Assembly: GCA_043823745.1 (NCBI GenBank)
Contig: JBDRAN010000059.1
Span: forward strand, 9,105 to 73,104
DNA: 64,000 nucleotides
Origin: Candidatus Omnitrophota bacterium
Lineage (GTDB): Bacteria > Omnitrophota > Gorgyraeia > Duberdicusellales > 4484-171
Direction of reading: 5' to 3'
Within the stretch, counting starts at the first letter, position 1. Every line of letters starts with the position of its first letter. The notes under the pieces were generated by a model. It was not told the DNA's origin. It searched no databases and saw nothing but the letters and a program-made list of their open reading frames with translations. Shown here piece by piece: positions 6,350-52,920 of this stretch. The translations under genes and the position numbers were made by a program.

Positions 6350-6430
6350 TCCCGTTTCGCGGCTTACGCCAAAATTATCATGCTTGCAAAGTAAGCGCGA
6401 TAATTTTGACGCGCTCAACGGGATAATTCT

Positions 6431-8755: not shown

Positions 8756-8819
8756 GGGCAAACGAGATAGCAACTTTTCAAGCGACCAAAGGGAGTGCCG
8801 GAAAGGTGCGTAATCGAAT

Positions 8820-8915: not shown

Positions 8916-8998
8916 AATTCGCGCAGGTGACTTATGAGCGCTTACGTGCGAACGCTTCATACGTCACGCGCTCATTGAATACCTGGCCATATCGGATG

Positions 8999-9064
8999 GG
9001 CCAGTATGCATCTCTATGCAACACCCGGCCGAATTGGAACGGCCAGTATGCATCTCTATGCAAG
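8999..9064. promoter_or_regulatory. Two perfect 23-bp direct repeats, GGCCAGTATGCATCTCTATGCAA, 43 bp apart. Each contains the dyad TGCAT-N4-ATGCA. They lie directly upstream of the SDR gene, so I read them as candidate operator sites.
   Basis: Copies at 8999-9021 and 9042-9064. The second copy ends 4 nt before the RBS AGGAGG of the SDR gene. Confidence 0.45.
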
Positions 9065-9073
9065 GAGGATATA

Positions 9074-9846: not shown

Positions 9847-9980
9847 AGAGATTGTTAATTGGTGATTACATAATAATATATTATCCCGACAGCTAAGCAC
9901 TGCGAAAATTTATACTAAATTTTCTTGTAGCCGTCGGGATGCTTCGCTCCATAGGAATGGGGCTCGCAAGGAGGTTTTAG

Positions 9981-11438
9981 ATGAAGGTTTTATTTGTGCA
10001 ACCAAAAATCGGCGCGTGGGCAACACATGGAACACACTTTGCACCGAATCAGCTGTACGCGCAATGGGGAGCGTATATTCGCGCCAAGGGGTATAGTAAC
10101 CTTGAGGTGTTGGACGCGACGGTTCTCGCTATCGGGCTTGAGCAGATCGGGGAAAAAGTTAAAGAAAAAAATCCCGATGTCGTCGTGCTTGGCGATATGA
10201 TTCATTGTTCTGTCGGTTTTGGCATCATCTGGCATTTTAACCAGGCCGCCGCGCGCGTTAAGCAGGCGCTGCCAAAAGTGAAAGTGGTGATGGGCGGGCT
10301 GTGGTATTCCGCGCTTCCGGTGCAAACGTTAGAGGACAATCCAGCGATTGACTATGTGGTTATGGGAGAGGAAGAATCATTTTTTGATCTCATTGACGCG
10401 CTTGCCAAAGGCAAAAGCACCAAAGATATTGGCGGCGTTACTTCGCGCGTAGACGGCTTGCCCGTAATGGGCCCGCATAGGCCTTTACTGCAGGATTTAG
10501 ATCAGCTGCCGCTTCCGGCGTATGATTTGTTTCCGATGGATAAATATGTGGGGCATACCTTCTGGAAGCCGTTTGTGGAAATGATTACTTCCCGGGGGTG
10601 TCCTTCAGCGTGCACATTCTGCTACGAGTGGGATCAGTATGATCCTCGTTCACCTAATGATTTTTTAACCTGGCGCGCAAAATCTCCGGAGCGTGTTATT
10701 GAGGAGCTCGAGCTCTTGCATAAAATGGGCACGAAAGTCGTTGTTATCCAGGATGATAATTTCAATGTGGATGCTAGCCGCGTTGAGAAGTTTTGTCAGT
10801 TGAAAAAAGCAAAGAATAATCCGATTAAATGGGTGTCGCTCGGCCGCGCCGTTGACTGGGTCAACTGTGAAAAAATATTGCCGCTTATGAAAGAAACCGG
10901 TATGTTTATGGGGGTTTTCGGCATTGAGGTCACCACACCGGAAGAGCTTAAGAAAATAGCCAAAGGTATCACTATCGATCAAATCAAAAAGACCATTGAT
11001 ATTTTGCGTGCGCAAGATATCGCCATCGTCGCGGATATCATGATGGGCTTTGATGAGGACACGGAATATTCGATTAAGCAGCGTTATGAGTTTACCGATG
11101 AAGTTGATCCTGATATTCTGTGGGTCGGGTATGTTACGCCGGCCCCTAATTCTCCTATTTGGCGCCAGAGAGTCAAGCGCGGCGAGATCGATATCAAAAA
11201 GATTGATTTTCTTAAATGGGATTTTCTGCATCCGGTCATGGCAACCCCGCACCTTTCGCTTGAAGATTATGGAAGGCTCGGAGCGTGGTGCATGCGTGAA
11301 TTTTTTTCAAAGCCCGGTAGGATCCAGCGCATTATGACCAGCAACTTCGATCCCTTGGCAAAGCTTTGTTTTGAGGATGTTATGCGCGGGGTAACCAAGT
11401 GGGAAGCCGGCGCGGTGAAGGGAGAGAAGCATATTTAA
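9981..11438 (+). CDS. B12-binding-domain radical SAM protein
   Basis: N-terminal cobalamin-binding-like domain followed by the radical SAM motif SRGCPSACTFCYEW (C-x3-C-x2-C). Confidence 0.8.
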   Translation: MKVLFVQPKIGAWATHGTHFAPNQLYAQWGAYIRAKGYSNLEVLDATVLAIGLEQIGEKVKEKNPDVVVLGDMIHCSVGFGIIWHFNQAAARVKQALPKVKVVMGGLWYSALPVQTLEDNPAIDYVVMGEEESFFDLIDALAKGKSTKDIGGVTSRVDGLPVMGPHRPLLQDLDQLPLPAYDLFPMDKYVGHTFWKPFVEMITSRGCPSACTFCYEWDQYDPRSPNDFLTWRAKSPERVIEELELLHKMGTKVVVIQDDNFNVDASRVEKFCQLKKAKNNPIKWVSLGRAVDWVNCEKILPLMKETGMFMGVFGIEVTTPEELKKIAKGITIDQIKKTIDILRAQDIAIVADIMMGFDEDTEYSIKQRYEFTDEVDPDILWVGYVTPAPNSPIWRQRVKRGEIDIKKIDFLKWDFLHPVMATPHLSLEDYGRLGAWCMREFFSKPGRIQRIMTSNFDPLAKLCFEDVMRGVTKWEAGAVKGEKHI

Positions 11439-11449
11439 TGAGTCCTGTT

Positions 11450-11546
11450 TTTGCCTCAGTTGATTATTTTCGCAATTTCCTGTGCCCCAAAAGCGTAGGA
11501 AATTGCGAGAGAAACTATCGGGTGCAAAAACAGGACGAATTACCCC
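11450..11546. repeat. Copy C (inverted orientation) of the ~95-bp nested-palindrome element
   Basis: The reverse complement matches copies A and B. It starts 12 nt after the radical SAM stop codon. Confidence 0.7.
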
Positions 11547-11590
11547 GGACCACTTTCAAAAAAAATCGAAGAGATTTTTTGAACATGTAG

Positions 11591-12523
11591 GTGGTTCTGG
11601 TTGTATCTTCTCGATTACTAAGCAATTTTAAATCTATGTTGTGTGACGCACATCTTCATTTTATTCCCGAAGAGCTCGCCGGCCACACCTCTTTTTATAA
11701 AGGGGTATGGACGGACAAGGGGAAACTGTACGCTTTTCTTGATGCCCAAGGTATCGAGAGGGCACTCCTGGTGTATCCTTCGACGGATGCTCATTTGAAG
11801 CTTGGAGGGTATGCGCGTGTGTGCCATATGTATAATGCTTCCTGTCTTTCCCTTGCGAAAGAAAACAAGAAGATTATCCCCTCTGCGATTGTCGATATCG
11901 AAAACCTTACCGACATTACTTCTTGCGTTGCGGCGTTGCGTCAGGATGGTTTTCGCGCGATCAGCCTTGCCTCAAGCTACGCCGGCCGGTTCATCATTAA
12001 GGAACTTATACCTCTTTTTGAGGCGGTCGAGAAATATGGACTCGCAATTTTTGTCCACCCGCAAACTATAAACCCCATCGGTTTTGATCGTGTTAATGAT
12101 CCGCTGCTTATGCCGGTGCTTGAGTATAGCTTTGACAGCTCCATGTTTATGGGGCTTTTAATGATGGAGGGGGTTTTAGAAAAATTCGATATCCCTTTTA
12201 TCTTTTCATCATTAGGGGGGGTAATGCCGTTTTTAAAAGAGCGCTTTGACCGCGTCTACGGGATGCTTAGAGCCCGCAGTATCGTGAAAGATTTAGGGAA
12301 AAATCCCTCCGAGGTTCTCAAAAAAGTTTATGTGGATACTTCAAGTGCGTCTCTTGTACACATCAGGCTTGCGATTGAGCTTTTCGGGGAAGATAAAATT
12401 CTCTGGGGTTCTGATTATCCGGTGGCAGGCGATGTGACTGCAAGTATTGCGATGTTTGATGCGCTTGACCCGGCTCTAAAAGAAAAAATTACCGGTAGTA
12501 ACTTTCTGAAGCTTTTTGGTTAA
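11591..12523 (+). CDS. Amidohydrolase-2 family protein (ACMSD / aromatic-acid decarboxylase-like metal-dependent hydrolase)
   Basis: HLHFIP metal-binding His pair near the N-terminus, and a D-x-P motif (WGSDYPV) near the C-terminus, typical of PF04909. The start could instead be the internal Met at 11636. Confidence 0.6.
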   Translation: MVLVVSSRLLSNFKSMLCDAHLHFIPEELAGHTSFYKGVWTDKGKLYAFLDAQGIERALLVYPSTDAHLKLGGYARVCHMYNASCLSLAKENKKIIPSAIVDIENLTDITSCVAALRQDGFRAISLASSYAGRFIIKELIPLFEAVEKYGLAIFVHPQTINPIGFDRVNDPLLMPVLEYSFDSSMFMGLLMMEGVLEKFDIPFIFSSLGGVMPFLKERFDRVYGMLRARSIVKDLGKNPSEVLKKVYVDTSSASLVHIRLAIELFGEDKILWGSDYPVAGDVTASIAMFDALDPALKEKITGSNFLKLFG

Positions 12524-12619
12524 CAGTAACACGTATCACGTACCACGTAACATGTTTTTTATATAGTCAAAAGGCCTGATACCTGCTACGTGTAGCGTGC
12601 TACAGATACGTTTAAATAA
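12524..12619. repeat. CACGT/ACGTG word cluster (TAACACGTATCACGTACCACGTAACATG ... CTGCTACGTGTAGCGTGCTACAG). A related cluster lies at 7155-7226 (ATCACGTCGCACGTAACAGGTAACACGTTC...GATACGTGTTGC).
   Basis: Read directly; shared words ATCACGT, TAACACGT and CACGTAACA in both intergenic regions. Confidence 0.45.
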
Positions 12620-13423
12620 ATGAAAATATATAATAACGGTCAATTAGTCGATAAAGAGGGTATGCTTGAGATTTTTGAACCGGGGTTTCTTTTTGGCTGG
12701 GGAGCTTTTGAGACACTGCGCGCCTACCAGGGAAAGATACCGTTCCTGGCGCAACACATCGCGCGTCTGAACGAAACCTCAAAACATCTTGCGCTTGAGC
12801 TCGTGAGTCTTAACTTCGAAGAAATAATCAAAACGTTATTGCGCGAGAACAATGTGCTCGATGCCTACATACGTATTACCGCGTACAAGAGACGAGAAGG
12901 CACCGGTGTTCTGGTGTATATCGATCAATTCGGTTATTATCCGCAAAGCGTTTACGATAAGGGTTTTCGCGCTATCTTCACGCGCCATCGCCGGGATGCG
13001 GGGAATTATTTTTCAAAGATAAAGGCGCTCAGCTATCTTGAAAATCGCATGGCCTGGCACTCCGCGCAGGCCTCCGGCAATGATGAGGCGCTTATCTTAA
13101 ATAAAGAAGGGTTTTTGGTTGGAGGGTCTCGGAGTAATTTATTCTTGGTACGTAAAAAAGAAGTGCTCACGCCTTCGTTTGCAAATGGTGCGACAAATGG
13201 GATTACGCGTGATATAGTTATGGAATTGGCGCGTCAGATGCATATTGAGGTGCATGAGGCTGAACTTACCCAGGAAGACCTTTTTAGTTGTGATGAAGCT
13301 TTTCTGACTAGCGCTTTACTGGAGGTTATGCCTTTGGTAGAATGTGATGGTGATCCTATCGGTACCGCAAAGCCCGGCCCGGCCACACGTTTATTTTTAG
13401 AAGAATATAGGAAAAGTTTATGA
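12620..13423 (+). CDS. Class IV PLP aminotransferase-fold protein (BCAT / 4-amino-4-deoxychorismate-lyase-like), short form
   Basis: 267 aa with overall fold-type-IV architecture; the PLP-lysine region is near YKGFRAIFTRHRR. The size matches ADC lyase or D-amino-acid aminotransferase. Confidence 0.6.
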   Translation: MKIYNNGQLVDKEGMLEIFEPGFLFGWGAFETLRAYQGKIPFLAQHIARLNETSKHLALELVSLNFEEIIKTLLRENNVLDAYIRITAYKRREGTGVLVYIDQFGYYPQSVYDKGFRAIFTRHRRDAGNYFSKIKALSYLENRMAWHSAQASGNDEALILNKEGFLVGGSRSNLFLVRKKEVLTPSFANGATNGITRDIVMELARQMHIEVHEAELTQEDLFSCDEAFLTSALLEVMPLVECDGDPIGTAKPGPATRLFLEEYRKSL

Positions 13424-14370
13424 CAATGCATGATCTAAAGTTTTCCCCCTTATTCTGTCCCATTCACTTGAAAGCGGATAGTATCGCTATCCTTGATGAG
13501 ACGCTTCTGCCCCATAAAGTCAAATATATTGAAGTCAAAGACTATCGCGCGGCCTGCGATGCTATCAAGGGGATGAAGACTCGCGCGGTCGGACAGGTTA
13601 TTCTTGTTTTTTATACGTTTCTTTTGACCATACGTAAGAACCAGGATAAAAAAGATCTATTGCCTCTTTTAGAAGAGGTGGCGCAGGCAATCAACGCGAC
13701 CCGGCCGACATTATCGTTTAAGTATTTAACCGATATGATTCTGGGTTGGGCCCAAGCCGGGGCGCCCCTCGAGAAAAGTATTCTTGGATTTTTGGAGGGG
13801 CTTAAATACACGCGAATCGAGCAAGCCAAAGAAGCTGCGGCACTACTTTCTGACGGCGATACCATACTCACACATTGTAACATCAGTGGCCTTATGCCTT
13901 TAATTGGCCAGCTTGCCCACGCTGGAAATAAAAAAGTAACTTTCTTTGCTACCGAAACCAGGCCTTATTTGCAAGGTTCCCGGCTTACCGCCTGGGAACT
14001 AAAAGAAGCTGGTTTTGAGGTAATAGTTATTACTGATAACATGGTTGCTCAGGTAATGCATGAAGGAAAGATTGATAAGGTTATTGTGGGGGCAGACCAT
14101 CTTGCTGTGAACGGTGATGTTGCCAATAAGATCGGTACCTATCAAATCGCGATTGTCGCGCGAAACTTCAATATTCCTTTTTACGTGGTTTGCCCACCGG
14201 CTTCACGCGCCAAAAGCGGTAAGGATATTACCATCGAGATACGGCCGGATAAAGAATTGCTTGAGTACCAGGGTCTTCGGCTTGCGCCCAAGGGAGCACG
14301 AGGGTATTATCCGGCGTTTGACGTGACACCGAATGAGCTTATTAGTAAACATATTTATTTTAAAATATAA
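13420..14370 (+). CDS. eIF-2B alpha/beta/delta-family sugar-phosphate isomerase (MtnA / 5-deoxyribose-1-phosphate isomerase-like)
   Basis: 316 aa; conserved C-terminal GADhlavNGdvaNKiGTyqiAi block typical of S-methyl-5-thioribose-1-P isomerase and relatives. Confidence 0.7.
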   Translation: MTMHDLKFSPLFCPIHLKADSIAILDETLLPHKVKYIEVKDYRAACDAIKGMKTRAVGQVILVFYTFLLTIRKNQDKKDLLPLLEEVAQAINATRPTLSFKYLTDMILGWAQAGAPLEKSILGFLEGLKYTRIEQAKEAAALLSDGDTILTHCNISGLMPLIGQLAHAGNKKVTFFATETRPYLQGSRLTAWELKEAGFEVIVITDNMVAQVMHEGKIDKVIVGADHLAVNGDVANKIGTYQIAIVARNFNIPFYVVCPPASRAKSGKDITIEIRPDKELLEYQGLRLAPKGARGYYPAFDVTPNELISKHIYFKI

Positions 14371-14483
14371 CACGATTACCCTGATTTCCGCCACTTTGAT
14401 ATTTTATGTCGGCTGGTCCGCCTCCGGCGGAAGAGAAAGATTGCACAGGTTAATAACGATCTGCGCAAATACAAAAAGGAAAT

Positions 14484-15488
14484 ATGATAATCAATAACAA
14501 CGAAAAAATATTAAAAAAAGAAATAATCAATATTGGTAAAAAATTATATGAGTTGCGCCTTGTGGTTGCGCGCGCGGGAAATTTGAGTGCGCGGCTTGAT
14601 GGAAACACTGTCTTAGTTACTGCGAGCGGTACAAGTTTGGGGAATCTCACCGTAGATGATATTATCCGGATTGACATCCATAATGAGGAGGATGCAAAAA
14701 ATCCCCGTATAACGTCCGAGTTTCCTTTGCATCGTCTCGTGTATAAGAATTTTCCAAACAAAGTAACCATTCATTGCCACCCCACATTGATTAACGCTTA
14801 TTTTGCCCTTTTCTCTGACTTAAAGGCATTGACGTTTGAAACCAAACTTTATGTGGGCACCATTCCGGTTGTCGAGCAAGACACCCCATCAATCACGAAA
14901 CCGCAACTCGTGATTGATGCGTTAAAAATCAGCAATCTGGTTGTTATAAAAAATCATGGCGTGGTTGCAATCGCAGATACATTTAGGGATGCGTTATATG
15001 TAATCGAGACTTTGGAAGAGGCAGTAAAGGTAGCAGCAACTGCTCGTTTATTTAAAAAAGAAATTCTTGATAGTTTAGATACGGAATTAAAAGAAAATTT
15101 TCAAAGTGATTCGGCATTCGTAATGTTTTCAGAAGATCATATTCGCGCTATCGTGGATTTGGTAAATAAAGATGAGCTTATTGCAGCCAAAGGCAAAGAA
15201 TTGGATTTGACGTTAAAGCTGGCCATACAACTTGACGGTCATGACAAAATCTATAAATTTAATTTCGAAAAAGGAACAATCGTCAAATTAGATTTTGATG
15301 CAGATGCTCCCTTTGTGATCTCTGCGCCGACTGATGTTTGGGAATTAATCTTTTTGGGAAAACTTGATCCCTTTGTCGCCACCACACAAGGAAAAATGAA
15401 ATTACAGGGGCACTTAGGCCAGCTGAGCCGCTGGTATGTGCCGTTTACCCGGCTGTTTCAGTTGTTTAAACAAGTAAGAATTAAATAA
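14484..15488 (+). CDS. Class II aldolase/adducin-domain protein (MtnB / fuculose-P aldolase-like) fused to a C-terminal SCP2 sterol-carrier-like domain
   Basis: N-terminal class II aldolase pattern (VARAGNLSARLDG, IHCHPT). The C-terminal ~100 aa carry the SCP2 pattern (ATTQGKMKLQGHLGQLSRW). Confidence 0.65.
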   Translation: MIINNNEKILKKEIINIGKKLYELRLVVARAGNLSARLDGNTVLVTASGTSLGNLTVDDIIRIDIHNEEDAKNPRITSEFPLHRLVYKNFPNKVTIHCHPTLINAYFALFSDLKALTFETKLYVGTIPVVEQDTPSITKPQLVIDALKISNLVVIKNHGVVAIADTFRDALYVIETLEEAVKVAATARLFKKEILDSLDTELKENFQSDSAFVMFSEDHIRAIVDLVNKDELIAAKGKELDLTLKLAIQLDGHDKIYKFNFEKGTIVKLDFDADAPFVISAPTDVWELIFLGKLDPFVATTQGKMKLQGHLGQLSRWYVPFTRLFQLFKQVRIK

Positions 15489-15534
15489 TAACGCGAATAA
15501 ATTCACGTTTTTTCGCGCAATACAAGGAGGCCTT

Positions 15535-16347
15535 ATGGATTGGGGAATGAAAAATCGTTTAGAGCAACTTATTCCAAAAGGTCGGTGTTTCTTTTTGCCC
15601 ATCGACCATGGATATTTCCAAGGTCCAACTCGTTGCCTTGAGCAACCCGGAGAAACCATTAAGCCTTTGCTGGCGTATTGCGATGCCTTGTTCGTCACGA
15701 GGGGGGTATTGCGCGCAGCAGTAGAACCAGCTCTTGGTAAACCTATTATATTAAGGGTATCCGGCGGAACAAGCATGGCGGGAAAAGATTTAACCGATGA
15801 AGGAATTACAACTTCCATAGAGGAAATCATCCGCGTGAACGCTTCGGCAGTTGGCGTTTCTGTTTTTATCGGCAGCGACCATGAACACAAAACATTAATG
15901 AGCCTGGCACATATGGTCAATGAATGCGAAACGTACGGAATTCCGGTTATGGCGGTGACCGCAGTGGGAAAGGAACTGGAAAAACGTGATGCGCGCTATC
16001 TTGGTTTATGCTGTCGCATCGCCGCGGAACTCGGCGCGCGCATTGTAAAAACATATTGGTGTGAAGGCTTTGATAAAGTAGTGCGTGGTTGTCCCGTGCC
16101 CGTAGTGATAGCCGGCGGACCTGCATGCGATACAGAACATCAGGTATTCGAATTCGTCCATGATGGGATCACACGTGGCGCTATCGGCGTAAATCTGGGA
16201 AGAAATGTCTGGCAGAGTCCCCATCCCGTTGCGATGGCAAAAGCATTACGGGCAATCATTCATGAGAACGTCTCAGTCAAAAAAGCACAGGAAATATTTA
16301 ATGAGGAAGCATCTTTTTCGAAGCGGCGCAATAGAAAAAGTGGGTAG
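15535..16347 (+). CDS. DhnA-type class I aldolase (archaeal FBP aldolase / ADH-synthase AroA' / GriI-like)
   Basis: 270 aa, TIM-barrel class I aldolase pattern with the Schiff-base Lys region RIVKTYW and a typical LPIDHGY N-terminus. Confidence 0.65.
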   Translation: MDWGMKNRLEQLIPKGRCFFLPIDHGYFQGPTRCLEQPGETIKPLLAYCDALFVTRGVLRAAVEPALGKPIILRVSGGTSMAGKDLTDEGITTSIEEIIRVNASAVGVSVFIGSDHEHKTLMSLAHMVNECETYGIPVMAVTAVGKELEKRDARYLGLCCRIAAELGARIVKTYWCEGFDKVVRGCPVPVVIAGGPACDTEHQVFEFVHDGITRGAIGVNLGRNVWQSPHPVAMAKALRAIIHENVSVKKAQEIFNEEASFSKRRNRKSG

Positions 16348-16378
16348 TCCAACAGGACACCCGGCTGGGTAGCCGAAT
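16341..16378. terminator. Palindromic element TGGGTAG-TCCAACAGGacaCCCGGCTGGGTAG overlapping the aldolase stop codon. It belongs to the CCAACAGG-N3-CCTGTTGG hairpin family.
   Basis: Inverted repeat CCAACAGG/CCGGCTGG (one G-C mismatch class). The same motif recurs at 32719-32753 and 32824-32849. Confidence 0.4.
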
Positions 16379-16588
16379 TAATCCCGCCGTATAAAGCGAA
16401 GGCGGGATAATGAGTTTAATGATGTTAAGGGGAATAAATAAAATCCGAAGCACGAAATCCGAAATACGAGACAAACCTGAATGTCCGAATTTTCCAAAAT
16501 TCAAAAAGAGTAGTTCTTGTTATTGGTTATCCGTGTTTTGGGAACTTAAACATTGTTTCGGATTTACCTCTTAATAAGGAATAGTTAT

Positions 16589-17620
16589 ATGAAAGTAGCA
16601 ATGTATTACAGTAATAGCGATGTTCGTATCGAAGAAATGCCAAAACCAACAGTCGGTGCTGTTGAGCTCTTGCTTAAAGTAAAAGCCAGCGGTATCTGCG
16701 GTAGTGATGTTCTAGAATGGTATCGAATAAAGAAAGCGCCCATTGTGTTAGGCCACGAGGTTACCGGAGAGATTGTCGAACGAGGCTCTGCGGTAAAGCG
16801 CTATAACATTGGCGATAGGGTTTTCGTTTCGCATCACGTGCCGTGCAATAGCTGCCGTTATTGTCTTAGCGGAAATCATACCGTATGCGAGACTTTGCAC
16901 ACTACGAATTATTATCCGGGAGGATTTTCAGAGTATATCCGTGTACCGCAGATTAACATCGAGCGAGGCACTTTTTTACTACCTAAAAACGTTTCTTTTG
17001 AAGAAGGAACTTTCATTGAACCTTTAGCATGCGTAATCCGCGGGCAAAGGTTAGCGGGCCTTACGAAAGGCCAAAGCATACTAATACTGGGAGCGGGTAT
17101 TTCGGGGTTGCTCCATTTATTAGTGGCACGCACTAGAACAGATGCATGCGTAGCGGTCACTGATATTAACGAATATCGTTTAACGATGGCAACGAAATTT
17201 GGGGCAGACGCTGCCATAAACGCCAAAGACGATATTGCCCAACATTTCCGTCGCATCAATAACGATAGATTGGCGGACGTAGTAATCGTATGCACCTCTG
17301 CAGTGTCTGCATTCGCGCAAGCAATGAGATGCGTGGACCGCGCAGGCACCATTCTTTGCTTTGCTTCTACCGAACCAGGCATTGATGTTGCGGTTCCGGT
17401 GAATGATTTCTGGCGCAAGAGCATTAAGATTGTACATTCCTACGGTGCAAGCCCTTCTGACTTAAACGAAGCTCTAGAGATTCTGCGCGACAAAGAAGTT
17501 AGTGTGGCAGGCCTCATTACCCATCGTTTAAGCCTGCCAGAGGTAGGTTTAGGTTTTAAGCTTGCTAGTGAAGCTAAAGAGTGTATTAAGGTGATTATTG
17601 TTCCATTAAATAAAAAATGA
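16589..17620 (+). CDS. Zinc-dependent medium-chain alcohol dehydrogenase (threonine/sorbitol dehydrogenase-like MDR)
   Basis: GICGSDV...GHE catalytic-zinc motif, structural-zinc cysteines C-x2-C-x2-C-x7-C (CNSCRYCLSGNHTVC), and GAGISG NAD motif. Start chosen at ATG 16589 after the AAGGAA RBS. Confidence 0.8.
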   Translation: MKVAMYYSNSDVRIEEMPKPTVGAVELLLKVKASGICGSDVLEWYRIKKAPIVLGHEVTGEIVERGSAVKRYNIGDRVFVSHHVPCNSCRYCLSGNHTVCETLHTTNYYPGGFSEYIRVPQINIERGTFLLPKNVSFEEGTFIEPLACVIRGQRLAGLTKGQSILILGAGISGLLHLLVARTRTDACVAVTDINEYRLTMATKFGADAAINAKDDIAQHFRRINNDRLADVVIVCTSAVSAFAQAMRCVDRAGTILCFASTEPGIDVAVPVNDFWRKSIKIVHSYGASPSDLNEALEILRDKEVSVAGLITHRLSLPEVGLGFKLASEAKECIKVIIVPLNKK

Positions 17621-19113
17621 CCCCACATTATTCTTTATTTATTAACGGTGAGTTTAGGGATACGAAGATAGACCAGAATGTTATTAATCCGGCAAACGGA
17701 GAAATTATCGCAACCGCGTCAGTAGCAAGCCTTGCCCAGGTGGGTGCGGCGGTTGACGCTGCCCGGCAGGCGTTTGACAGCGGGCCATGGAGAACGTTTA
17801 GTCGCATTCAGCGTAAAGAAGCTCTTTTGAAAATAATGCAGGGCATTCTTGAAGAAGCAGGTACGCTTGCCGACCTTGAAACAGCGAACGTCGGAAAACC
17901 CATCAAAGAATCTACGTTCATGGATATACCAGCGTCCGCGGCCACCTTTGAGCATTTCGCTCATAACCTGGATCGGTACTTGCAGAGCGAAAATATTGAG
18001 ATCAATTCAAATATCGCCCAGGCTAACGCGACCATCGCTCGTGAGCCGGTAGGAGTAACGGCATTGGTCGTGCCCTGGAATTACCCTTTACTGATTGCTT
18101 CATGGAAGCTGGCGCAAAGTCTTGCTGCCGGCAATACCGTTGTGCTTAAGCCCTCGAGTCTTACGCCGCTTTCAGCGCTCCTGTTGGGTACGATTATACA
18201 TAAAGCAGGGCTTCCGGCCGGTGTGGTTAACGTTATTAATGCGCCCGGTGAAGCAGTAGGGGAGCTTTTGTGCGGTGACCCGCGCGTTGACATGATTTCG
18301 TTTACCGGTTCAAATACTGTCGGCAAAAAAATTGTAGGCTACAGCGCAAGACATGCCAAAAAAACCATTATGGAGCTGGGAGGAAAATCAGCCGGAATTG
18401 TTTTAGCTGACGCTGACCGTGAGTTTGCGGTTAATGGCTCGCTTTGTTCTATATTTCTAAATCAAGGCCAGATGTGCACCGCGATGTCCCGGATTCTTAT
18501 CCATGAGCGTCTCTACGATAGGTTTGTCAGTGATTTTGTAGAAAAGGCAAAACGGATTAAGCTCGGTGACCCGCGTGATTTCGAGACGCAGATGGGCCCG
18601 CTTATTTCGCGCCGGCAGCAAGATGAGGTCTGTGCATGTGTCGAGCGAGCAGCGGCGCAGGGCGCGAAAGTGCTCTGCGGGGGAAAGATCCCGCGCGCCC
18701 CCCAATTTTCGCAAGGATTTTTCTTTGAGCCCACGGTACTTGAGAACGTTAACCCTGATTCAGAAGTTTTCCGGGAAGAGGTATTCGGGCCGGTTGTCTG
18801 CGTAAGCAGCTTTAAAACTGACGAAGAAGCGATTGCGTGCGCAAACGATTCGCGCTTTGGCCTGGCGTCTTCGGTATGGTCAGCCGATACCTCAAACGCG
18901 CGCTCGCTCGCGCAAAAAATTAGCGCCGGTACAGTTTGGATCAATACGTATGGAATGTTTTTTAACGAGCTTCCCTATGGAGGTTTTAAAGAAAGTGGTT
19001 TTGGCAAAGAGTTGGGGAAAGAAGGGTTGCGTGAGTATACGCGGCTTAAGAACGTGGTTGTTGACGCTACGGTCAACGCGCGGCCGCTCGTGCATTATTG
19101 GTATGGGTTTTAA
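17617..19113 (+). CDS. NAD(P)-dependent aldehyde dehydrogenase
   Basis: ALDH signature ELGGKS, catalytic Cys in NQGQMCTA, and the FTGS-VG motif. Start overlaps the ADH stop (ATGA). Confidence 0.85.
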   Translation: MTPHYSLFINGEFRDTKIDQNVINPANGEIIATASVASLAQVGAAVDAARQAFDSGPWRTFSRIQRKEALLKIMQGILEEAGTLADLETANVGKPIKESTFMDIPASAATFEHFAHNLDRYLQSENIEINSNIAQANATIAREPVGVTALVVPWNYPLLIASWKLAQSLAAGNTVVLKPSSLTPLSALLLGTIIHKAGLPAGVVNVINAPGEAVGELLCGDPRVDMISFTGSNTVGKKIVGYSARHAKKTIMELGGKSAGIVLADADREFAVNGSLCSIFLNQGQMCTAMSRILIHERLYDRFVSDFVEKAKRIKLGDPRDFETQMGPLISRRQQDEVCACVERAAAQGAKVLCGGKIPRAPQFSQGFFFEPTVLENVNPDSEVFREEVFGPVVCVSSFKTDEEAIACANDSRFGLASSVWSADTSNARSLAQKISAGTVWINTYGMFFNELPYGGFKESGFGKELGKEGLREYTRLKNVVVDATVNARPLVHYWYGF

Positions 19114-46734: not shown

Positions 46735-49026
46735 TTATTTGATTTTAGGTTTGAAAGTAATAAGAATCCATGGGGTGATGAGAAGGTCGCAGCAGAGCGC
46801 TACAAATGTTGTTAGGGCACACAGGAAACCAAAGAGCATGGTGAGACGAAACTGCGAGAATAGTAAAACAAGATAACTGGCAATCATTACGTAGGAACTG
46901 AACATCATGGGTTCTCCCAGAAGCGAAAGCGTATGGCGCGTATTTTCGAGATAATCCGGATGTTGCGCCTGTTCTATCTTGAAACGGTTTAAAAAATGCG
47001 TCGTATCATCCATAGCAAGGCCAAGGGCTATTCCCGCCGTGAGTGCGGTTCCCACATTTAAGGTAATCCCGGCCCAACCCATAAACCCAAAGGTACATAG
47101 TGTCGGAATCACATTGGGTATCATCGTAAGCACACCTAATTTCAAAGAGCGAAAATAAATAATAGCGGCCAGAAGGAGCGTAAGGCCGACAAAGAGAAGG
47201 TCTTTTATCTGCCCCGTAGTGATAGAATTGACCATATTGGAATATATGACCGGGTATGAGGTTATTTTTATTTCAAGTGCCGGGTCCAGTCGGTCTTCGG
47301 AGAATTTTTTTATCCTGTTTACCAGCTTAATCGTCTCTACGGAGTTATGTTCTGAAATGCGGCAACGAATACGCGCCAGGCGGTAAGGGTAATCGACGAA
47401 ATCCTTTTCAACGTCGTTGCGTCGCGGCGACATAGAGTAAAGTAAAAGATACTGAGCAACCATTTCCCTTGTTTCAGGAAGCCGGTAATAGGCCTGGTCA
47501 TTATCATGCATTGCCCTGTTCATGTCTTTTAAAAAATCAACGATTGACACCGCCTTATCGACTTTCGGTTGTTGCCGCACAAACGTGGTTAGCATATCGA
47601 TTTGACGTAATACGGTTGGCTCTTTTATTGTATCGGCAATGTGCGTATCTACGGTTATTTCAAGATTAGAAACACCCGCAATATTTTTCTCTATAAAAAC
47701 AGTAGCTTGGCGTACTTCGCTGTTTTTATGGAAAAACTCAAGATGGTCAGTCTCGGCGCGTATGCGTAGAATACCCGCAATACAGAAAATTATTAAAAGC
47801 GGCAAGCCCACCCAGAACCAGCGTCTCCGGCGTTCTATGAAACGTATGATTGCGGCAATAAGAGGGGCGGCATTGATTTTTAGAACCGGTTTTTTTTGCA
47901 AATCCGGAAGTGTTTTTAGCAGTATGTGGAAACTGGGGATAAGAATCAGGGAAATGATAAATGCCAAAGTGGCCGCAATGCTGCCGAGAATTCCAAAATC
48001 AACAATAGGTTTTATGTTGTTGACCATCAACGAAGCGAATCCTATAACTGTGGTAAAGCTTGCGAAGAAACAAGGCCCGAATATCAAGATGAGTGCTTCC
48101 CGAAACGCACCCCGCCTGTCCGGGTAGGTGCGGCGGAGTTGGCGATAATAAATGTCGTGAATGTAATAAATATTTTCCAGCGCGATACAGAAAATAAGAG
48201 GAATAATGCCTATAGTCACATTGTTAAAAGTTTTGCCCATGACCGCGATGGCTCCCATTGACCAGATTAAAGAAAGGGTGATGACGAGCAGCGCAGCGAT
48301 AGTATCCCGCCAGCGCCCCATGGTAAGCCGCATCAATGCGGTTATGATTAGGTAGATGGGAATGATAAAGACAAAAAAATCCCGTTGCATGTATTCGCCG
48401 AGCGAATGGTTGATGATTGCATCTCCGGCAAGGTAAAGTTTATATTTTCTGTGGGCATTTTCTTTCAGCAGTATTGTTTTTATTTTTTTTACTACTTCAT
48501 TCGTTCGTTGTTTCTTAGGATCACTTTTGATATCCACGAGCAATGAATAGAATTTACCGTCCGCAGAGGCAAGGTCTTTTACATAAAGATAATTAGTAAT
48601 AGCATGTATGCGGATTATGTCGCTTTCCTGGCGTGACTGCGGTATTTTTTCCATCAGCGCTTTTACCTGGAACATGTCGGGGGTCGTGGTAATCAAGTTT
48701 GCCGTGGAGAGGGACTTGACGTTACGAACAAAATCAATTTCTTCTATTTTTTTACTTAAATTTTTGATGAACGTAAGGTCTTCTTTTGAGAATAATGAGC
48801 CGCCTTTAAACCCGATGACTACCGTTTCGTCCGTTTCGAAAAGTTCCTTTATTTTGTTGTAGTAGAGCATATCCGGATCGTTACGGATGACGAACGCAGA
48901 AAGTGAGGTATCAAACTCGAGATGAGCTAACGCCCAGCCGAAGAGGAGCGTAACGATAGCCAATATGAGCAGGTTCGTGCGGGGGAATCGAACAATAAGC
49001 TTTGCAATCAGGCGTATCAATGACAT
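46735..49026 (-). CDS. MMPL/RND-superfamily exporter (two 6-TM bundles with sterol-sensing-like domains and periplasmic loops; HpnN-like)
   Basis: 763 aa, 12 predicted TM helices in a 1+5 / 1+5 arrangement with large loops. Confidence 0.75.
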   Translation of the reverse strand: MSLIRLIAKLIVRFPRTNLLILAIVTLLFGWALAHLEFDTSLSAFVIRNDPDMLYYNKIKELFETDETVVIGFKGGSLFSKEDLTFIKNLSKKIEEIDFVRNVKSLSTANLITTTPDMFQVKALMEKIPQSRQESDIIRIHAITNYLYVKDLASADGKFYSLLVDIKSDPKKQRTNEVVKKIKTILLKENAHRKYKLYLAGDAIINHSLGEYMQRDFFVFIIPIYLIITALMRLTMGRWRDTIAALLVITLSLIWSMGAIAVMGKTFNNVTIGIIPLIFCIALENIYYIHDIYYRQLRRTYPDRRGAFREALILIFGPCFFASFTTVIGFASLMVNNIKPIVDFGILGSIAATLAFIISLILIPSFHILLKTLPDLQKKPVLKINAAPLIAAIIRFIERRRRWFWVGLPLLIIFCIAGILRIRAETDHLEFFHKNSEVRQATVFIEKNIAGVSNLEITVDTHIADTIKEPTVLRQIDMLTTFVRQQPKVDKAVSIVDFLKDMNRAMHDNDQAYYRLPETREMVAQYLLLYSMSPRRNDVEKDFVDYPYRLARIRCRISEHNSVETIKLVNRIKKFSEDRLDPALEIKITSYPVIYSNMVNSITTGQIKDLLFVGLTLLLAAIIYFRSLKLGVLTMIPNVIPTLCTFGFMGWAGITLNVGTALTAGIALGLAMDDTTHFLNRFKIEQAQHPDYLENTRHTLSLLGEPMMFSSYVMIASYLVLLFSQFRLTMLFGFLCALTTFVALCCDLLITPWILITFKPKIK

Positions 49027-49033
49027 GGATACA

Positions 49034-50506
49034 TTACTTTGCGTCGTTTTTTAAATACCGGAATTGATAACCGTCTTGTAGGGAAGGCGGAAGCGTATCC
49101 TTTACATCATCGTAGGTAACGCTTTTTTCCTCAATGATTTGCTGCGTTACATTCAATATATAGGGCGGTATGGCCCGCAGCACGATGGCAATTTTCCATA
49201 GGTATGCTTTACAAGACATATATTTACGCATACGTAGATAATTGAGCGGCGAGATGCTTTTGAGCCACAACAGAACATATTCAAAATAAAAGCGCCACTT
49301 AGGAAGTGTGGTTTTGCAAACCATATATTCTAGATTAAAGAAACCGTAGTTATATATGCTTAATTGTTTTTTCTCCTTCATCTCTTTAAAAAGTATCGTT
49401 CCGGGCGTGGGGGTGAGCGGCACGAAATAGGGTTGTGCGATTTTGTATTTTTTAATAAATGCCCAAAGTTCTCTGAATTCCTTTTGCTTGAAATGTGGGA
49501 AAATGATGAAGTGGGCGAAGCATTCGATGCCCAGCTGATTTAAAATTTCTATCGCTTTTACGTTGTTTTCCAATGTCGTGCGTTTATTAAGTCCGTCAAG
49601 CCCCGCATTGTTGACCACTTCAAAGCCCACGACAAGGCAATAAAGACCTATTTTTCTCCAGCGTTGGAAAACTTCCGGGTGTTCGACGATAGTGTCGGTG
49701 CGGGCGTACGCGCCGTATTGTTTTTTTACCCCGCGTTTTTCCAGGGCGTCAGCCATCTTCATCGCGTGTATATGATCGTGAAAGGTATTATCGTCGGCGA
49801 TATAAACGCGGCGTTGCGGTAATTGGGCGATATCATCGGTAACATCTTGAATATCGCGCAGTCGATAGGTACCCCGTGCAGTAAACCAGAGAGAGCAGAA
49901 AGTGCAGCGGTGAGGGCATCCGTGTGTCGTAATGGTGATGCCGGCGTGAAAGTGTCTGCGATATCGCGCGGCGAGCGTCCTGTCTAAGACAGGCCAGCGG
50001 AACGTCCCGGAAACAAGGGCGCGCTCTTCTGTGAAGATGAATTTATTTCCTTTGCGGATGGCCAGTCCTTTAACCTGTTCTAGCGGGGTATTGTCCCGTA
50101 AGGCTTTGACGACTTCAGGGAATGTTTCTTCTCCGGGGCCTATACAAATAAGATCAAAACAAGGTTGGTTAAAATCATCAGGGAGCAGCGTGGGGTGCTG
50201 GCCGCCGATGATAGTGATTACCTCCGGTATGATGCATTTTGCTTCTTCGAGCATCCTGCGCGTAGTAAAGATTTCTCCTGATGTGTGTATACGCGCCGCG
50301 ATTAAGTCCGGCTTAAATTGTTTAAGTACTTTCTGCCAGGACCGCGGACTTTCGTAGCGTCGGTCAAATATTTTCACCTCAGCAAAATCTTTTACCAGTG
50401 AGCCAAGTAAAATTGCAACGAGAGGCTCATAAAAAGGCAGAAAAGGAACAAAAGACCTATGAAAATTGGGATAGGTGACGAGGACGCGCGGTTTTGTTGT
50501 CATCAA
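49034..50506 (-). CDS. B12-binding-domain radical SAM protein
   Basis: Radical SAM motif TTHGCPHRCTFCSLW; N-terminal B12-binding-like domain. Transcribed in the same direction as the MMPL gene and directly upstream of it. Confidence 0.75.
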   Translation of the reverse strand: MMTTKPRVLVTYPNFHRSFVPFLPFYEPLVAILLGSLVKDFAEVKIFDRRYESPRSWQKVLKQFKPDLIAARIHTSGEIFTTRRMLEEAKCIIPEVITIIGGQHPTLLPDDFNQPCFDLICIGPGEETFPEVVKALRDNTPLEQVKGLAIRKGNKFIFTEERALVSGTFRWPVLDRTLAARYRRHFHAGITITTHGCPHRCTFCSLWFTARGTYRLRDIQDVTDDIAQLPQRRVYIADDNTFHDHIHAMKMADALEKRGVKKQYGAYARTDTIVEHPEVFQRWRKIGLYCLVVGFEVVNNAGLDGLNKRTTLENNVKAIEILNQLGIECFAHFIIFPHFKQKEFRELWAFIKKYKIAQPYFVPLTPTPGTILFKEMKEKKQLSIYNYGFFNLEYMVCKTTLPKWRFYFEYVLLWLKSISPLNYLRMRKYMSCKAYLWKIAIVLRAIPPYILNVTQQIIEEKSVTYDDVKDTLPPSLQDGYQFRYLKNDAK

Positions 50507-50514
50507 GCTTCTCT

Positions 50515-51987
50515 TTAAAAAGAGTATTTTGCTTTTACAAAAAACTGGTCATTTTTATTGTACTGACCAAAGGTAGTATCAGGGGGTCCGAAGAAGTTAT
50601 CGTAACCTACAGCCATGGTGAGTGCGTCAGTGAGTGCATATTCGCATTTAAGTTCCCAGTAACGATCAAGGTTATATAGGTACAGCCGGCCTGTTGCTTC
50701 AAGGAGCAAGGTATCATGAATAAATTTCCTTGAGACTTTATAAATAAGACTATCCTCGTATCGGCGCGAGGTCATTCCTGCTTCATGGTCTGGAATGTAT
50801 TGCATATAATATTGAACGTTTACATAGACTCTATTTTTAAAAGTATAATCGCCCCCCACGATGCCGACAAAAGCATCCTTTTTAACCGTTCCGTCAGTTC
50901 TCTCGGGAGAATCGCTTACGAAACGGTCCCCCCACGTATACGCGAATTCCCCTCGTACACCGGCTTTTCCCAGGAGCGTTTCAAAATCAGAACCAATCGT
51001 ATGCTCGCGATGGTAACGCTGGGATACTTCATAGTTTGGCGCAAAGAAAGGAGGAGAGCCTATACTGACGAGATCGCGGTGTAGAGACGGTAATTCATCG
51101 TAATGGTAGGCATAGCTTAAGGAGAGGTCATAATCCTGCGTTGTTTTGCTCACTTTAAGCGCTCCTACTTGGCTGTGCAGGTTTTGTGCCGGCCGTGAAG
51201 GTGTATCAACAGGGATCTCGTTGAGATGATACTGGCGTAACAGATACGGTTCCCAGTCAGAGCCTGTTTCCGGAATACGGCTTGCTTCGAAAAAAGGAAG
51301 CCATATGACCTCGACATTAAACGGCTCAAATGCGTAATCAAGTTTTGTCATCCAGACGGGAAGTTTGCGTTCCGCCCGCGTTAAATTCAGATATTCGGTC
51401 CAGTCCTCAGGCGTAAAATTATCGGTTGGGTTTAGCTCATCCGATTTTCCCCAGCGTATAACTTGTCTTCCTAGGCGCAGGTTAAGGTTGCTCGTGGCAT
51501 AATTAAGGTAGCATTCCCAAAGTTTAAAGCGCTTTTCTTCATCACTCGTGTGCTTCGCGCTGCTATGTACCAGGTCGTATTGCCCATCAAGCGAGAGAAA
51601 TGATGAGAAACGTTCGGAGAACCATTGCGATGATTCAAGGCGCAAATCCTGACGTAGCTCATAGGCATGCTCTGTTGTAGTATCTTTTTTTCTGTCGAAG
51701 TAATTACGGTTTTGGTAGTAGCCGTGGATGTTTACTCGTTCCCAGAAGGTTTTTTCTTCTGCGGTGGATTTTTTATCGACCGCGGCGGTTGTAGCGGGAA
51801 GTGTTTCTTTTTCCTTTGGTGCCGACGCGTCAGTTTTTTTTACAAGTTGTGTATTTTTTTCACATTCATCGAGCATCTGGTGTATTATTTTTACTTTTGG
51901 CTGCACGATTTTCTCAGCACCGAAAGAGTTTCCATGTGTTGAAACGATAATGGCACCGATAAGGAGAAAATTTTTTTTACCCATCAA
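50515..51987 (-). CDS. Outer-membrane beta-barrel protein (DUF1302-like partner of MMPL exporters)
   Basis: Signal peptide; alternating amphipathic beta-strand pattern; C-terminal aromatic residue (…KAKYSF). Confidence 0.45.
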   Translation of the reverse strand: MMGKKNFLLIGAIIVSTHGNSFGAEKIVQPKVKIIHQMLDECEKNTQLVKKTDASAPKEKETLPATTAAVDKKSTAEEKTFWERVNIHGYYQNRNYFDRKKDTTTEHAYELRQDLRLESSQWFSERFSSFLSLDGQYDLVHSSAKHTSDEEKRFKLWECYLNYATSNLNLRLGRQVIRWGKSDELNPTDNFTPEDWTEYLNLTRAERKLPVWMTKLDYAFEPFNVEVIWLPFFEASRIPETGSDWEPYLLRQYHLNEIPVDTPSRPAQNLHSQVGALKVSKTTQDYDLSLSYAYHYDELPSLHRDLVSIGSPPFFAPNYEVSQRYHREHTIGSDFETLLGKAGVRGEFAYTWGDRFVSDSPERTDGTVKKDAFVGIVGGDYTFKNRVYVNVQYYMQYIPDHEAGMTSRRYEDSLIYKVSRKFIHDTLLLEATGRLYLYNLDRYWELKCEYALTDALTMAVGYDNFFGPPDTTFGQYNKNDQFFVKAKYSF

Positions 51988-52829: not shown

Positions 52830-52920
52830 TTAATGTTACGTACATTATAATATATCGTGAAGAGAATGTAATTTTTAAAAACTACTTAAATCCTTACGTA
52901 TAGGATTCAAGAGATACGCT

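Follow-up and report, generated by a model that had tools for sequence, protein, structure and literature searches.

What does a set of sugar-phosphate genes do at the end of a type II polyketide synthase (PKS) locus? The question is raised by 64 kb of DNA from a metagenome-assembled genome (MAG) of Candidatus Omnitrophota, called the window throughout, in which eight open reading frames (ORFs), all on the + strand, fill positions 9981-19113 and begin and end exactly at these borders. This module is the distal half of a co-directional array of about 20 kb that is conserved in Candidatus Omnitrophota. It is a cassette of the dihydroxyacetone phosphate (DHAP) shunt type with an SCP2-fused aldolase, an invariant aldehyde dehydrogenase (ALDH) and a recruited pair of an LsrF-type gene and a zinc-dependent alcohol dehydrogenase (Zn-ADH) gene, and it lies in a cluster of PKS genes and a B12-binding radical S-adenosylmethionine enzyme (B12-rSAM; SAM, S-adenosylmethionine). 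As to its function, we consider salvage of a by-product through DHAP-shunt chemistry, possibly feeding the PKS incidentally, to have about an even chance of being correct. The module is composed as follows.

9981..11438, + strand, class B (B12-binding) radical SAM enzyme (Pfam Radical_SAM and B12-binding)
11591..12523, + strand, Amidohydrolase_2 protein, decarboxylase-like (PF04909)
12620..13423, + strand, class IV pyridoxal phosphate (PLP) enzyme, similar to branched-chain aminotransferases (BCATs), an optional cluster member (PF01063)
13420..14370, + strand, pentose-1-phosphate isomerase of the MtnA/DrdI family (PF01008, IF-2B)
14484..15104, + strand, class II (metal-dependent), DHAP-type aldolase domain of the fusion (PF00596)
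15105..15488, + strand, C-terminal SCP2 domain of the aldolase fusion, a lipid or acyl-CoA carrier fold (PF02036)
15535..16347, + strand, homologue of the LsrF-type (DhnA-fold), coenzyme A (CoA)-dependent thiolase (DeoC Pfam, NF006081)
16553..17620, + strand, Zn-dependent medium-chain dehydrogenase/reductase (MDR) of the polyol/threonine-dehydrogenase type (Pfam ADH_N and ADH_zinc_N)
17617..19113, + strand, NAD(P)-dependent, non-acylating aldehyde dehydrogenase (PF00171, Aldedh)

An earlier, sequence-only reading of this DNA had listed the eight ORFs with their domains and had described them as co-oriented with the PKS core. All Pfam assignments were reproduced above gathering scores, by which Pfam matches were judged, while NCBIfam matches were judged by the cut-offs of the models. 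The module is indeed co-directional with the upstream genes for a ketosynthase (KS) and a chain length factor (CLF), an acyl carrier protein (ACP), two cyclases, a major facilitator superfamily (MFS) transporter and a short-chain dehydrogenase/reductase (SDR), all on the + strand. At two junctions, class IV enzyme/isomerase and Zn-ADH/ALDH, the stop codon overlaps the next start by 4 nt, and the remaining gaps between module genes measure 46-241 nt. The true start of the Amidohydro_2 gene is likely at about 11636 and that of the Zn-ADH gene probably at 16589.

The isomerase matched PF01008 (E 1e-56), passed the subfamily model TIGR00524 (205 bits, cut-off 186) and stayed slightly under the cut-off of two MtnA models (257 and 237 bits). 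Its catalytic Cys (THCN) and Asp (GAD) are conserved. The MtnA type proposed from the sequence held, with 188 bits for TM0911 and 162 for B. subtilis MtnA against about 90 for ribose-1,5-bisphosphate (R15P) isomerases, and on these scores an identity as R15P isomerase was rejected. Adjacent to the isomerase lies a class II aldolase with a DHAP site (PF00596, Aldolase_II, E 7e-33). Across 36 homologues the equivalents of FucA N29, T43/G44, S71/S72, E73, H92, H94 and H155 do not vary, and the enzyme keeps the FucA-type Zn ligands with all three His, besides the Glu and the phosphate site. When the full-length fusion model was used in Foldseek, the aldolase matched alone and FucA structures ranked at the top. 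The aldolase is divergent in sequence, with 52 bits to T. thermophilus FucA and 27 bits to DrdA. An identity as MtnB dehydratase was rejected (58 bits, model cut-off 137), and a search for MtnC, MtnD and MtnK (enolase-phosphatase, acireductone dioxygenase and MtnK) among the ORFs of the 64 kb found none. The departure from canonical methionine salvage, on which the earlier proposal depended, is in agreement with both results.

The C-terminal SCP2 domain passed PF02036 (23.3 bits, cut-off 21.3). Modelling of its 127 residues (208-334) with AlphaFold2 gave a pLDDT of 86, and Foldseek matched the model to T. thermophilus SCP2 (2cx7, TM 0.82, E 1e-7) as well as to AF1534, UbiJ-SCP2 and human SCP2. 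The fusion of a class II aldolase with SCP2, as originally called, is thus borne out by profile and by fold. The protein of the window is 100% identical to an NCBI protein from a Candidatus Omnitrophota MAG, and the fusion is retained in more than 1,200 homologues, of which the best 120 are 68-85% identical. Every named homologue is from Omnitrophota. The fusion is phylum-wide in Omnitrophota and no one-off, a point that the sequence-only reading had overlooked. A literature search on SCP2 combined with class II aldolases found no description of such a fusion, and aldolase-SCP2 stands as a conserved, unexplained architecture.

To follow the module across the phylum, one genome per GTDB species was scanned, which yielded 38 loci. 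Apart from a few with Planctomycetes or Patescibacteria labels assigned by third parties, almost all of them carry the label Omnitrophota. The window proteins were compared with these loci by tblastn, and the denominators given here are the loci with sufficient flank to test. The isomerase lies upstream of the aldolase in 34/35 loci, ALDH lies downstream in 31/32, and Amidohydro_2 is present in 27/28. The slot before the isomerase holds a nucleoside phosphorylase (22/31 loci), the class IV enzyme (5/31) or neither (4/31). A phosphorylase directly upstream in this many relatives supports the view, already held in the sequence-only reading, that the pairing of isomerase and class II aldolase fits the DHAP shunt. 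In the Pfam-annotated relative contexts the genes of phosphorylase, isomerase and aldolase overlap by 4 nt. The phosphorylase of the relatives scored 117 bits with uridine phosphorylase, 95 with DeoD and 56 with HpnG. Phosphorylase-type relatives also encode, after ALDH, a FadD-like AMP ligase of the long-chain-fatty-acid-CoA type (NF004837, 428 bits), which is present in 13/13 phosphorylase-type loci vs 0/5 others; this correlation may reflect a single lineage split and not independent events. We rejected the idea that the ligase substitutes for the LsrF/ADH pair, because both co-occur in several loci. The loci that we call type B, the window included, have neither phosphorylase nor ligase. 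The ligase of the sister lineages had gone unseen in the first reading.

The same survey bears on the link to the PKS. PKS genes are linked to the module in 21 of the 22 testable loci, in agreement with the continuity assumed earlier. No intergenic terminator was found by a consensus scan that performs no better than on shuffled sequence; its promoter and terminator counts in the window did not exceed the shuffled level, and the scan is uninformative on operon structure. A search of the 64 kb against Rfam at the gathering threshold returned 0 matches, hence no SAM, S-adenosylhomocysteine (SAH) or cobalamin riboswitch. Toxin-antitoxin and Schlafen-like insertions leave the module set undispersed. 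In one locus (L001, 11026-15735) a Schlafen/AlbA_2-type ATPase and a MazE/PIN pair are inserted between aldolase, ALDH and LsrF-type gene, and the order of the module is undisrupted.

The protein that the sequence-only reading had taken for a GriI/AroA'-type aldolase turned out differently. It matched the DeoC Pfam family (E 3e-25) and passed the LsrF thiolase equivalog NF006081 (343 bits vs 297), and it failed ADH_synth (198 vs 299), BagB/FevI (105 vs 500) and PRK07226 (196 vs 241). On these scores a GriI/ADH-synthase identity was rejected, and the profile matches identify the DhnA-type protein as a predicted LsrF-type CoA-dependent thiolase. Its best match in the Protein Data Bank (PDB) is E. 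coli LsrF (3gkf/4p2v, 247 bits), MJ0400 reaching 143 bits, and the Schiff-base Lys of LsrF (K203) aligned with the K of RIVKTY. The protein lacks the N-terminal 31 model positions, which correspond to about 33 residues of E. coli LsrF. Among the matches listed, its relatives are Omnitrophota proteins of 77-89% identity, which NCBI names P-HPD thiolase. P-HPD (3-hydroxy-2,4-pentanedione-5-phosphate) is the known substrate of LsrF and is cleaved with CoA to DHAP and acetyl-CoA. A GriH/DHQ-synthase-II partner (PF01959), which a GriI-like function would have led one to look for on the contig, was absent from the 64-kb window and from ten annotated relative contexts. Likewise, no LsrK, LsrG, LsrB/LsrACD or LsrR was found in the window or in any annotated related locus. 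Since no context has lsrK, lsrG, lsrB or lsrACD, P-HPD must come from elsewhere.

The partner of this gene is the Zn-ADH. Its best PDB matches are sorbitol dehydrogenase (138 bits), ketose reductase (128) and Tdh (127), with plain alcohol dehydrogenases at 120-125 bits. Both Zn sites are present, together with a GAGISG motif and an Asp indicating NAD preference. LsrF-type and Zn-ADH genes co-occur in 12/27 loci, and either one alone in 0. The pair is inserted as a unit, before or after the ALDH gene. The pairing is obligate, and it too had escaped the first reading.

A second clade of aldolase-SCP2 proteins is only about 32-36% identical to that of the window (251 matches, all Omnitrophota). 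In its loci the isomerase, aldolase-SCP2 and ALDH are about 32-38% identical to their window counterparts, whereas for PKS, B12-rSAM, Amidohydro_2, LsrF-type and ADH proteins the identity is mostly 58-83%; lower values were seen for MFS, ACP, the class IV enzyme and one divergent B12-rSAM. Because two divergent versions fill the same slot, the trio of isomerase, aldolase-SCP2 and ALDH can be regarded as a replaceable functional cassette. The second-clade isomerase is split; its two ORFs, of about 300 aa and about 158 aa, each match PF01008, as seen at 6708-7184 in L047, 9528-10004 in L049, 9535-10014 in L050, 9509-9985 in L051 and 9529-10011 in L052. Two loci carry the module without adjacent PKS genes.

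L047 (CP070807): B12-rSAM, Amidohydro_2, class IV enzyme, isomerase, aldolase-SCP2, ALDH, LsrF-type, ADH, MMPL, DUF1329, DUF1302
L050: PadR, ligase, phosphorylase, isomerase, B12-rSAM, aldolase-SCP2, MMPL, DUF1329, DUF1302

In L050 the B12-rSAM gene separates the two isomerase ORFs and immediately precedes the aldolase gene. A B12-rSAM accompanies isomerase and aldolase in every architecture, including L047 and L050, which have no PKS in their 10-kb flanks. As B12-rSAM, isomerase and aldolase-SCP2 are kept together in these two loci without PKS, they form the constant partnership of the cluster. In L052, PKS, module, MMPL-DUF1329-DUF1302 exporter and a 4HBT thioesterase are found in one array. 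The window has a counterpart of this exporter at a distance.

46735..53601, - strand, lipid-export block with MMPL/RND, B12-rSAM, DUF1302, LolA-like/DUF1329 and acyltransferase genes

Counterparts of the MMPL, DUF1329 and DUF1302 genes of this block adjoin the module directly downstream in L047, L050 and L052. The exporter link is recurrent, which the sequence-only reading had overlooked, and the block of the window is possibly linked to the module.

Of the remaining module proteins, the B12-rSAM has a CPSACTFC motif with the CxxxCxxC core and a B12-binding domain. Among NCBIfam models BchE (192 bits) and HpnJ (155 bits) score highest with it, both far under cut-offs, and assignment to the BchE, HpnJ, PhpK, HpnR or ladderane radical SAM families was rejected, as all scores were below cut-off. 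Amidohydro_2 (PF04909, E 4e-18) has the HLH (HxH) and GSD metal motifs; its nearest structures, ACMSD, LigW and IDCase, are weak matches of 46-48 bits, and no NCBIfam model matched. The class IV enzyme (PF01063, Aminotran_4, E 4e-51) had been compared in size to 4-amino-4-deoxychorismate (ADC) lyase or a D-amino-acid aminotransferase (DAAT). The likeness to ADC lyase was not sustained, for the enzyme appears BCAT-like by score (archaeal BCATs 161 bits in the PDB, DAAT 78, ADC lyase 69), and ADC lyase was rejected. It remains under all NCBIfam cut-offs, among them those for the BCAT subfamily (201 vs 363) and for ADC lyase (143 vs 308). The ALDH (PF00171, E 1e-164) has the catalytic Cys and Glu and is closest to aminobutyraldehyde/betaine-aldehyde dehydrogenases (501 bits, cut-off 615).

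We infer the substrates, the direction of flow, the coupling of Zn-ADH to the LsrF-type enzyme and a hand-over to the PKS from the gene identities, motifs, fusion, synteny statistics and family cut-offs given above. The trio of phosphorylase, isomerase and class II aldolase defines 5-deoxyribose salvage, or the DHAP shunt (PMC6079011). DHAP-shunt chemistry is most likely because this signature is combined with an adjoining radical SAM enzyme as a source of 5'-deoxyadenosine. A SAM-derived 5'-deoxynucleoside, the simplest candidate being 5'-deoxyadenosine from the adjoining B12-rSAM, would be converted to 5-deoxyribose-1-phosphate, a step that the nucleoside phosphorylase would perform in the sister lineages and that is not encoded in the window. 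The MtnA-family isomerase would form 5-deoxyribulose-1-phosphate, which the SCP2-fused class II aldolase would split into DHAP and an aldehyde. ALDH would oxidize the aldehyde to the acid, and the FadD-like ligase of the sister lineages would then activate the acid as a thioester.

The obligate pair suggests a second branch. 5-deoxyribulose-1-phosphate (CH3-CHOH-CHOH-CO-CH2OP) and P-HPD (CH3-CO-CHOH-CO-CH2OP) are one oxidation at C4 apart. Since P-HPD is one oxidation away and the obligate partner of the LsrF-type gene encodes a secondary-alcohol dehydrogenase, probably NAD-dependent, we infer an oxidative thiolytic bypass. In this parallel branch Zn-ADH would oxidize the C4 hydroxyl of 5-deoxyribulose-1-phosphate to give P-HPD, and the LsrF-type thiolase would cleave P-HPD with CoA to DHAP and acetyl-CoA. 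The net result would be the conversion of radical SAM waste into DHAP and an activated C2 unit beside the PKS. Two uses of the module had been considered in the sequence-only reading, recycling of 5'-deoxyadenosine or synthesis of an amino-aromatic PKS starter. The first stands as the most likely reading, and the second is not supported, with the LsrF cut-off passed and GriH missing.

Several observations weigh against salvage. No gene for a phosphorylase, nucleosidase or pentose-1-phosphate kinase was found in the 64-kb window, the phosphorylase of the relatives is Udp/DeoD-like and not MtnP-like, and the aldolase is as distant from DrdA as stated above. A search for literature linking LsrF with 5-deoxyribose found none, and one on LsrF together with MtnA found nothing relevant. 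Salvage on behalf of the whole cell leaves unexplained the SCP2 fusion in both clades, the long-chain type of the FadD-like ligase, the position of the module between PKS genes and MMPL exporter in L052, and its attachment to one particular B12-rSAM, though the window has six radical SAM genes. In addition, Zn-ADH could merely reduce the aldehyde, because its scores against plain alcohol dehydrogenases are nearly equal.

A comparison with characterized systems shows where the module agrees with them and where it departs. Like the DHAP shunts (DrdK or phosphorylase-DrdI-DrdA; MtnP/MtnK-MtnA-Ald2), it has the gene of an MtnA-family isomerase ahead of that of a metal-dependent class II aldolase, in most Omnitrophota relatives a translationally coupled nucleoside phosphorylase precedes the isomerase, and a radical SAM enzyme adjoins as a source of 5'-deoxyadenosine. 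Unlike them, the Omnitrophota aldolase is a distinct, SCP2-fused subfamily, the cluster has the invariant ALDH, the added FadD-like ligase and the LsrF-type/Zn-ADH pair, the phosphorylase is Udp/DeoD-like, the module is located inside a PKS/exporter cluster, and the window has neither phosphorylase nor kinase. The fluoroacetate route of Streptomyces cattleya ends with an aldehyde dehydrogenase that yields the acid. Its first three steps are carried out by a 5'-fluoro-5'-deoxyadenosine (5'-FDA) phosphorylase, an isomerase and a fuculose-type aldolase (PMC6079011). The order of reactions is the same, from a 5'-modified 5'-deoxyadenosine to DHAP and a C2 aldehyde and on to the acid, whereas no fluorinase/DUF62 was found in the window.

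The LsrF-type protein resembles E. coli LsrF in passing the equivalog, in its PDB match and in keeping the Schiff-base Lys. It differs from it in lacking an lsr context and the N-terminal model positions, and in being obligately paired with Zn-ADH beside an MtnA-type isomerase. For the proposed coupling a formal parallel exists in Tdh/Kbl, where an MDR Zn-dehydrogenase oxidizes a secondary alcohol and a CoA-dependent C-C cleavage follows that gives acetyl-CoA. The parallel is one of analogy only: the cleaving enzyme of Omnitrophota has a Schiff-base DhnA fold, whereas Kbl is a PLP enzyme, and the coupling to Zn-ADH would be the counterpart that we propose. The hopanoid system HpnH/HpnG/HpnN likewise combines a PNP_UDP_1-family enzyme, a radical SAM enzyme and a sterol-sensing MMPL exporter, and in its logic the 5'-deoxyadenosyl group serves as a building block. 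The Omnitrophota loci differ in having no HpnH, in HpnG and HpnJ scores (56 and 155 bits) far under the cut-offs, and in that no squalene-hopene cyclase was seen in the cluster.

This last comparison leads to the strongest rival, a dedicated branch, which we hold as a tentative possibility. In analogy to the logic of HpnH/HpnG or MqnE/MqnB, a radical SAM enzyme might adenosylate a lipophilic or polyketide acceptor, or the B12-rSAM might modify the 5-deoxypentose itself, with a product that feeds the PKS. Phosphorylase, isomerase and SCP2-aldolase would trim the ribose to DHAP and leave a C2-extended aldehyde, which would be turned into the acid by ALDH and into the acyl-CoA by the FadD-like ligase, or else by Zn-ADH and the LsrF-type thiolase. 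The acyl-CoA would prime or modify the PKS product, followed by export through MFS or MMPL. The presence of a lipid-carrier fold on the aldolase of both deep clades, a ligase of the long-chain type, the position of the module between the PKS and the MMPL (sterol-sensing)/DUF1329/DUF1302 exporter in L052 and next to the exporter in L047 and L050, and the B12-rSAM between the isomerase ORFs of L050 all agree with this. So does the Lys that the CLF-like protein described below carries at the site of the priming Gln, which would be in line with a requirement for an externally supplied starter, and so does the weak similarity of phosphorylase and radical SAM enzyme to HpnG and HpnJ. However, the HpnG and HpnJ scores are all far under the cut-offs, no HpnH or MqnE homologue was detected, and no B12-type radical SAM enzyme is known to adenosylate. 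Similarity to LsrF at equivalog level argues for the small substrate P-HPD and for an acetyl instead of a long acyl product, and type B loci such as the window have neither phosphorylase nor ligase.

Taken to its full extent, and in this form we find it unlikely, the module would serve biosynthesis, with the ribose of the 5'-deoxyadenosyl group of SAM as carbon donor, and would deliver its product to an exported polyketide lipid. A 5'-substituted deoxyadenosine, possibly a lipophilic or polyketide adduct held by SCP2, would be trimmed to a C2-extended aldehyde or acid; alternatively, its trimming by Zn-ADH and the LsrF-type thiolase would lead straight to an acyl-CoA. Whichever compound results would prime or decorate a phylum-specific polyketide lipid, exported by MMPL/DUF1302/DUF1329. 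If true, LsrF-type thiolases would have a primary metabolic role outside the degradation of a quorum signal.

General nucleoside or pentose catabolism, from ribose-1-phosphate through ribulose-1-phosphate to DHAP and glycolaldehyde and on to glycolate, with only incidental proximity to the PKS, is improbable. Such a route would be similar to the last part of the haloarchaeal non-carboxylating pentose bisphosphate pathway, and it is in keeping with the best matches of the phosphorylase (uridine phosphorylase and DeoD) and with a weak match of the aldolase to a haloarchaeal ribulose-1-phosphate aldolase model (54 bits). The housekeeping gene RlmN is a conserved neighbour of the cluster as well, so that part of the synteny could be inertia. 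On the other hand, the isomerase is of the MtnA and not the R15P type and a ribose-1-phosphate kinase is lacking, the linkage to B12-rSAM and PKS survives rearrangements, toxin-antitoxin and Schlafen-like insertions and cassette replacement, and both SCP2 fusion and LsrF-type thiolase would be left unexplained.

Two further explanations have hardly any probability left. A GriI/ADH-synthase-like aldolase that joins aspartate semialdehyde with DHAP or 6-deoxy-5-ketofructose-1-phosphate (DKFP) into an amino-aromatic PKS starter, as once proposed for this locus, would share the DhnA fold of GriI/GriH of 3-amino-4-hydroxybenzoate (3,4-AHBA) synthesis and of MJ0400/MJ1249, could refer to the sub-threshold ADH_synth and MJ0400 matches and would have a class IV PLP enzyme nearby, but the protein is under both family cut-offs and passes that of LsrF, the cyclase PF01959 is absent, the gene is optional where the PKS is constant, and its invariable partner is a Zn-ADH and not a cyclase. 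Equally disfavoured is an Lsr-like degradation of autoinducer-2 (AI-2), in which the LsrF-type enzyme cleaves P-HPD from imported, phosphorylated 4,5-dihydroxy-2,3-pentanedione (DPD), since the equivalog match and the public names (P-HPD thiolase or AI-2 aldolase) face the missing lsr genes and the missing N-terminal positions.

We return to salvage by DHAP-shunt chemistry and to the PKS that it might feed. The upstream half of the array comprises the following genes.

1777-3024, + strand, KS of the type II PKS core
3126-4358, + strand, CLF-like KS partner of the type II PKS core
4368-5150, + strand, tetratricopeptide repeat (TPR) protein, PKS accessory gene
5238-5474, + strand, ACP of the PKS core, 78 aa, GVDS motif
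5540-6349, + strand, cyclase, PF04199, PKS accessory gene
6708-7154, + strand, SRPBCC cyclase, PKS accessory gene
7227-8351, + strand, MFS transporter, PKS accessory gene
8348-8755, + strand, ORF without assigned function, between MFS and SDR
9016-9846, + strand, SDR/ketoreductase (KR), PKS accessory gene

Both KS-like proteins are FabF-like by score. The KS keeps all catalytic residues (Cys-His-His), whereas in its partner a Lys replaces the active-site Cys and the second His is absent, and we therefore regard the two as a KS/CLF-type pair. With the discrete ACP and the cyclases the locus has the composition of a type II PKS. The Lys of the CLF-like partner occupies the site of the priming Gln in canonical CLFs, and by this residue the PKS might be incapable of self-priming by malonyl decarboxylation. 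A catalogue of KS-CLF proteins lists Ca. Omnitrophica KS/CLF pairs (PMC10132072), and ladderane-type biosynthetic gene cluster (BGC) calls in Omnitrophota MAGs are reported in a second source (PMC9902471); the passages searched in the two mention neither the sugar-phosphate module nor the SCP2 fusion nor the LsrF-type gene.

The KS gene is immediately preceded by an ORF (3-1652) that possibly extends past the start of the window and encodes a ketopantoate-reductase-like (ApbA/PanE) protein whose C-terminal domain is TIGR04076. The annotated start of the SDR at 9016 is spanned by a 42-nt tandem duplication (8978-9061, copies 83% identical), and the gene probably starts at the second ATG, near 9058, giving about 257 aa as in relatives. 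The intergenic regions of the array contain a palindromic repeat of about 100 nt in three copies, one of them inverted, in the gaps between cyclase and SRPBCC gene (6430-6523), between the ORF without assigned function and SDR (8817-8916), and between B12-rSAM and Amidohydro_2 (11436-11542). Its outer stem is formed by CCCGTTTTTGC and GCAAAAACGGG and its inner stem by CGCAATTTCC and GGAAATTGCG. An exact pattern search of the 64 kb recovered two of the three copies and no further sites; the third copy deviates in one arm. The repeat may account for gaps that are wider here than in relatives, and it could be a regulatory element or similar to repetitive extragenic palindromes (REP) or miniature inverted-repeat transposable elements (MITE). 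A second hairpin family (TCCCGAC...GTCGGGA) occurs at 6582-6643 in the cyclase/SRPBCC gap and at 9884-9939 in the gap between SDR and B12-rSAM, and a similar shorter GGGAT hairpin at about 16380-16412 in the 241-nt gap between LsrF-type and ADH genes.

Further features of the window lie outside the array. A second lipid-type cluster (39282-53601) encodes a FeeM-like N-acyl amino acid synthase, ThiF, a beta-eliminating lyase, MMPL, DUF1302, LolA-like/DUF1329 and a PlsC-type acyltransferase, together with three further B12-rSAM genes at 40471, 42718 and 49034 (the last on the - strand). The product of 23768-25063 joins a HypC/HupF chaperone domain, at its N-terminus, to a HydE-like radical SAM maturase, which scores 240 bits with the HydE model, just under the cut-off of 255. 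The neighbouring ORF (25044-25937) is a fusion of a peroxiredoxin (Redoxin/AhpC-TSA) with a pterin-4a-carbinolamine dehydratase domain. The SMC protein of 1674 aa (55925-60949) is interrupted close to its N-terminal ATPase head by an intein, which contains a LAGLIDADG homing endonuclease domain.

LsrF-type enzymes are otherwise known only from the breakdown of a quorum signal, and the module gives them a testable role outside the quenching of AI-2. The annotation of the gene as AI-2 aldolase/thiolase is probably misleading here. The route proposed would be an oxidative, CoA-dependent form of the DHAP shunt, in which the C2 fragment of 5'-deoxyadenosine is saved as acetyl-CoA. At the level of the locus, our comparison defines a phylum-wide Omnitrophota cluster of type II PKS, B12-rSAM and shunt, with an exporter in some members. 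BGC tools may label such clusters "ladderane-like", a label that is probably misleading here. Omnitrophota are an uncultured lineage rich in radical SAM enzymes, and the product of this cluster may be a signature lipid or polyketide of the group.

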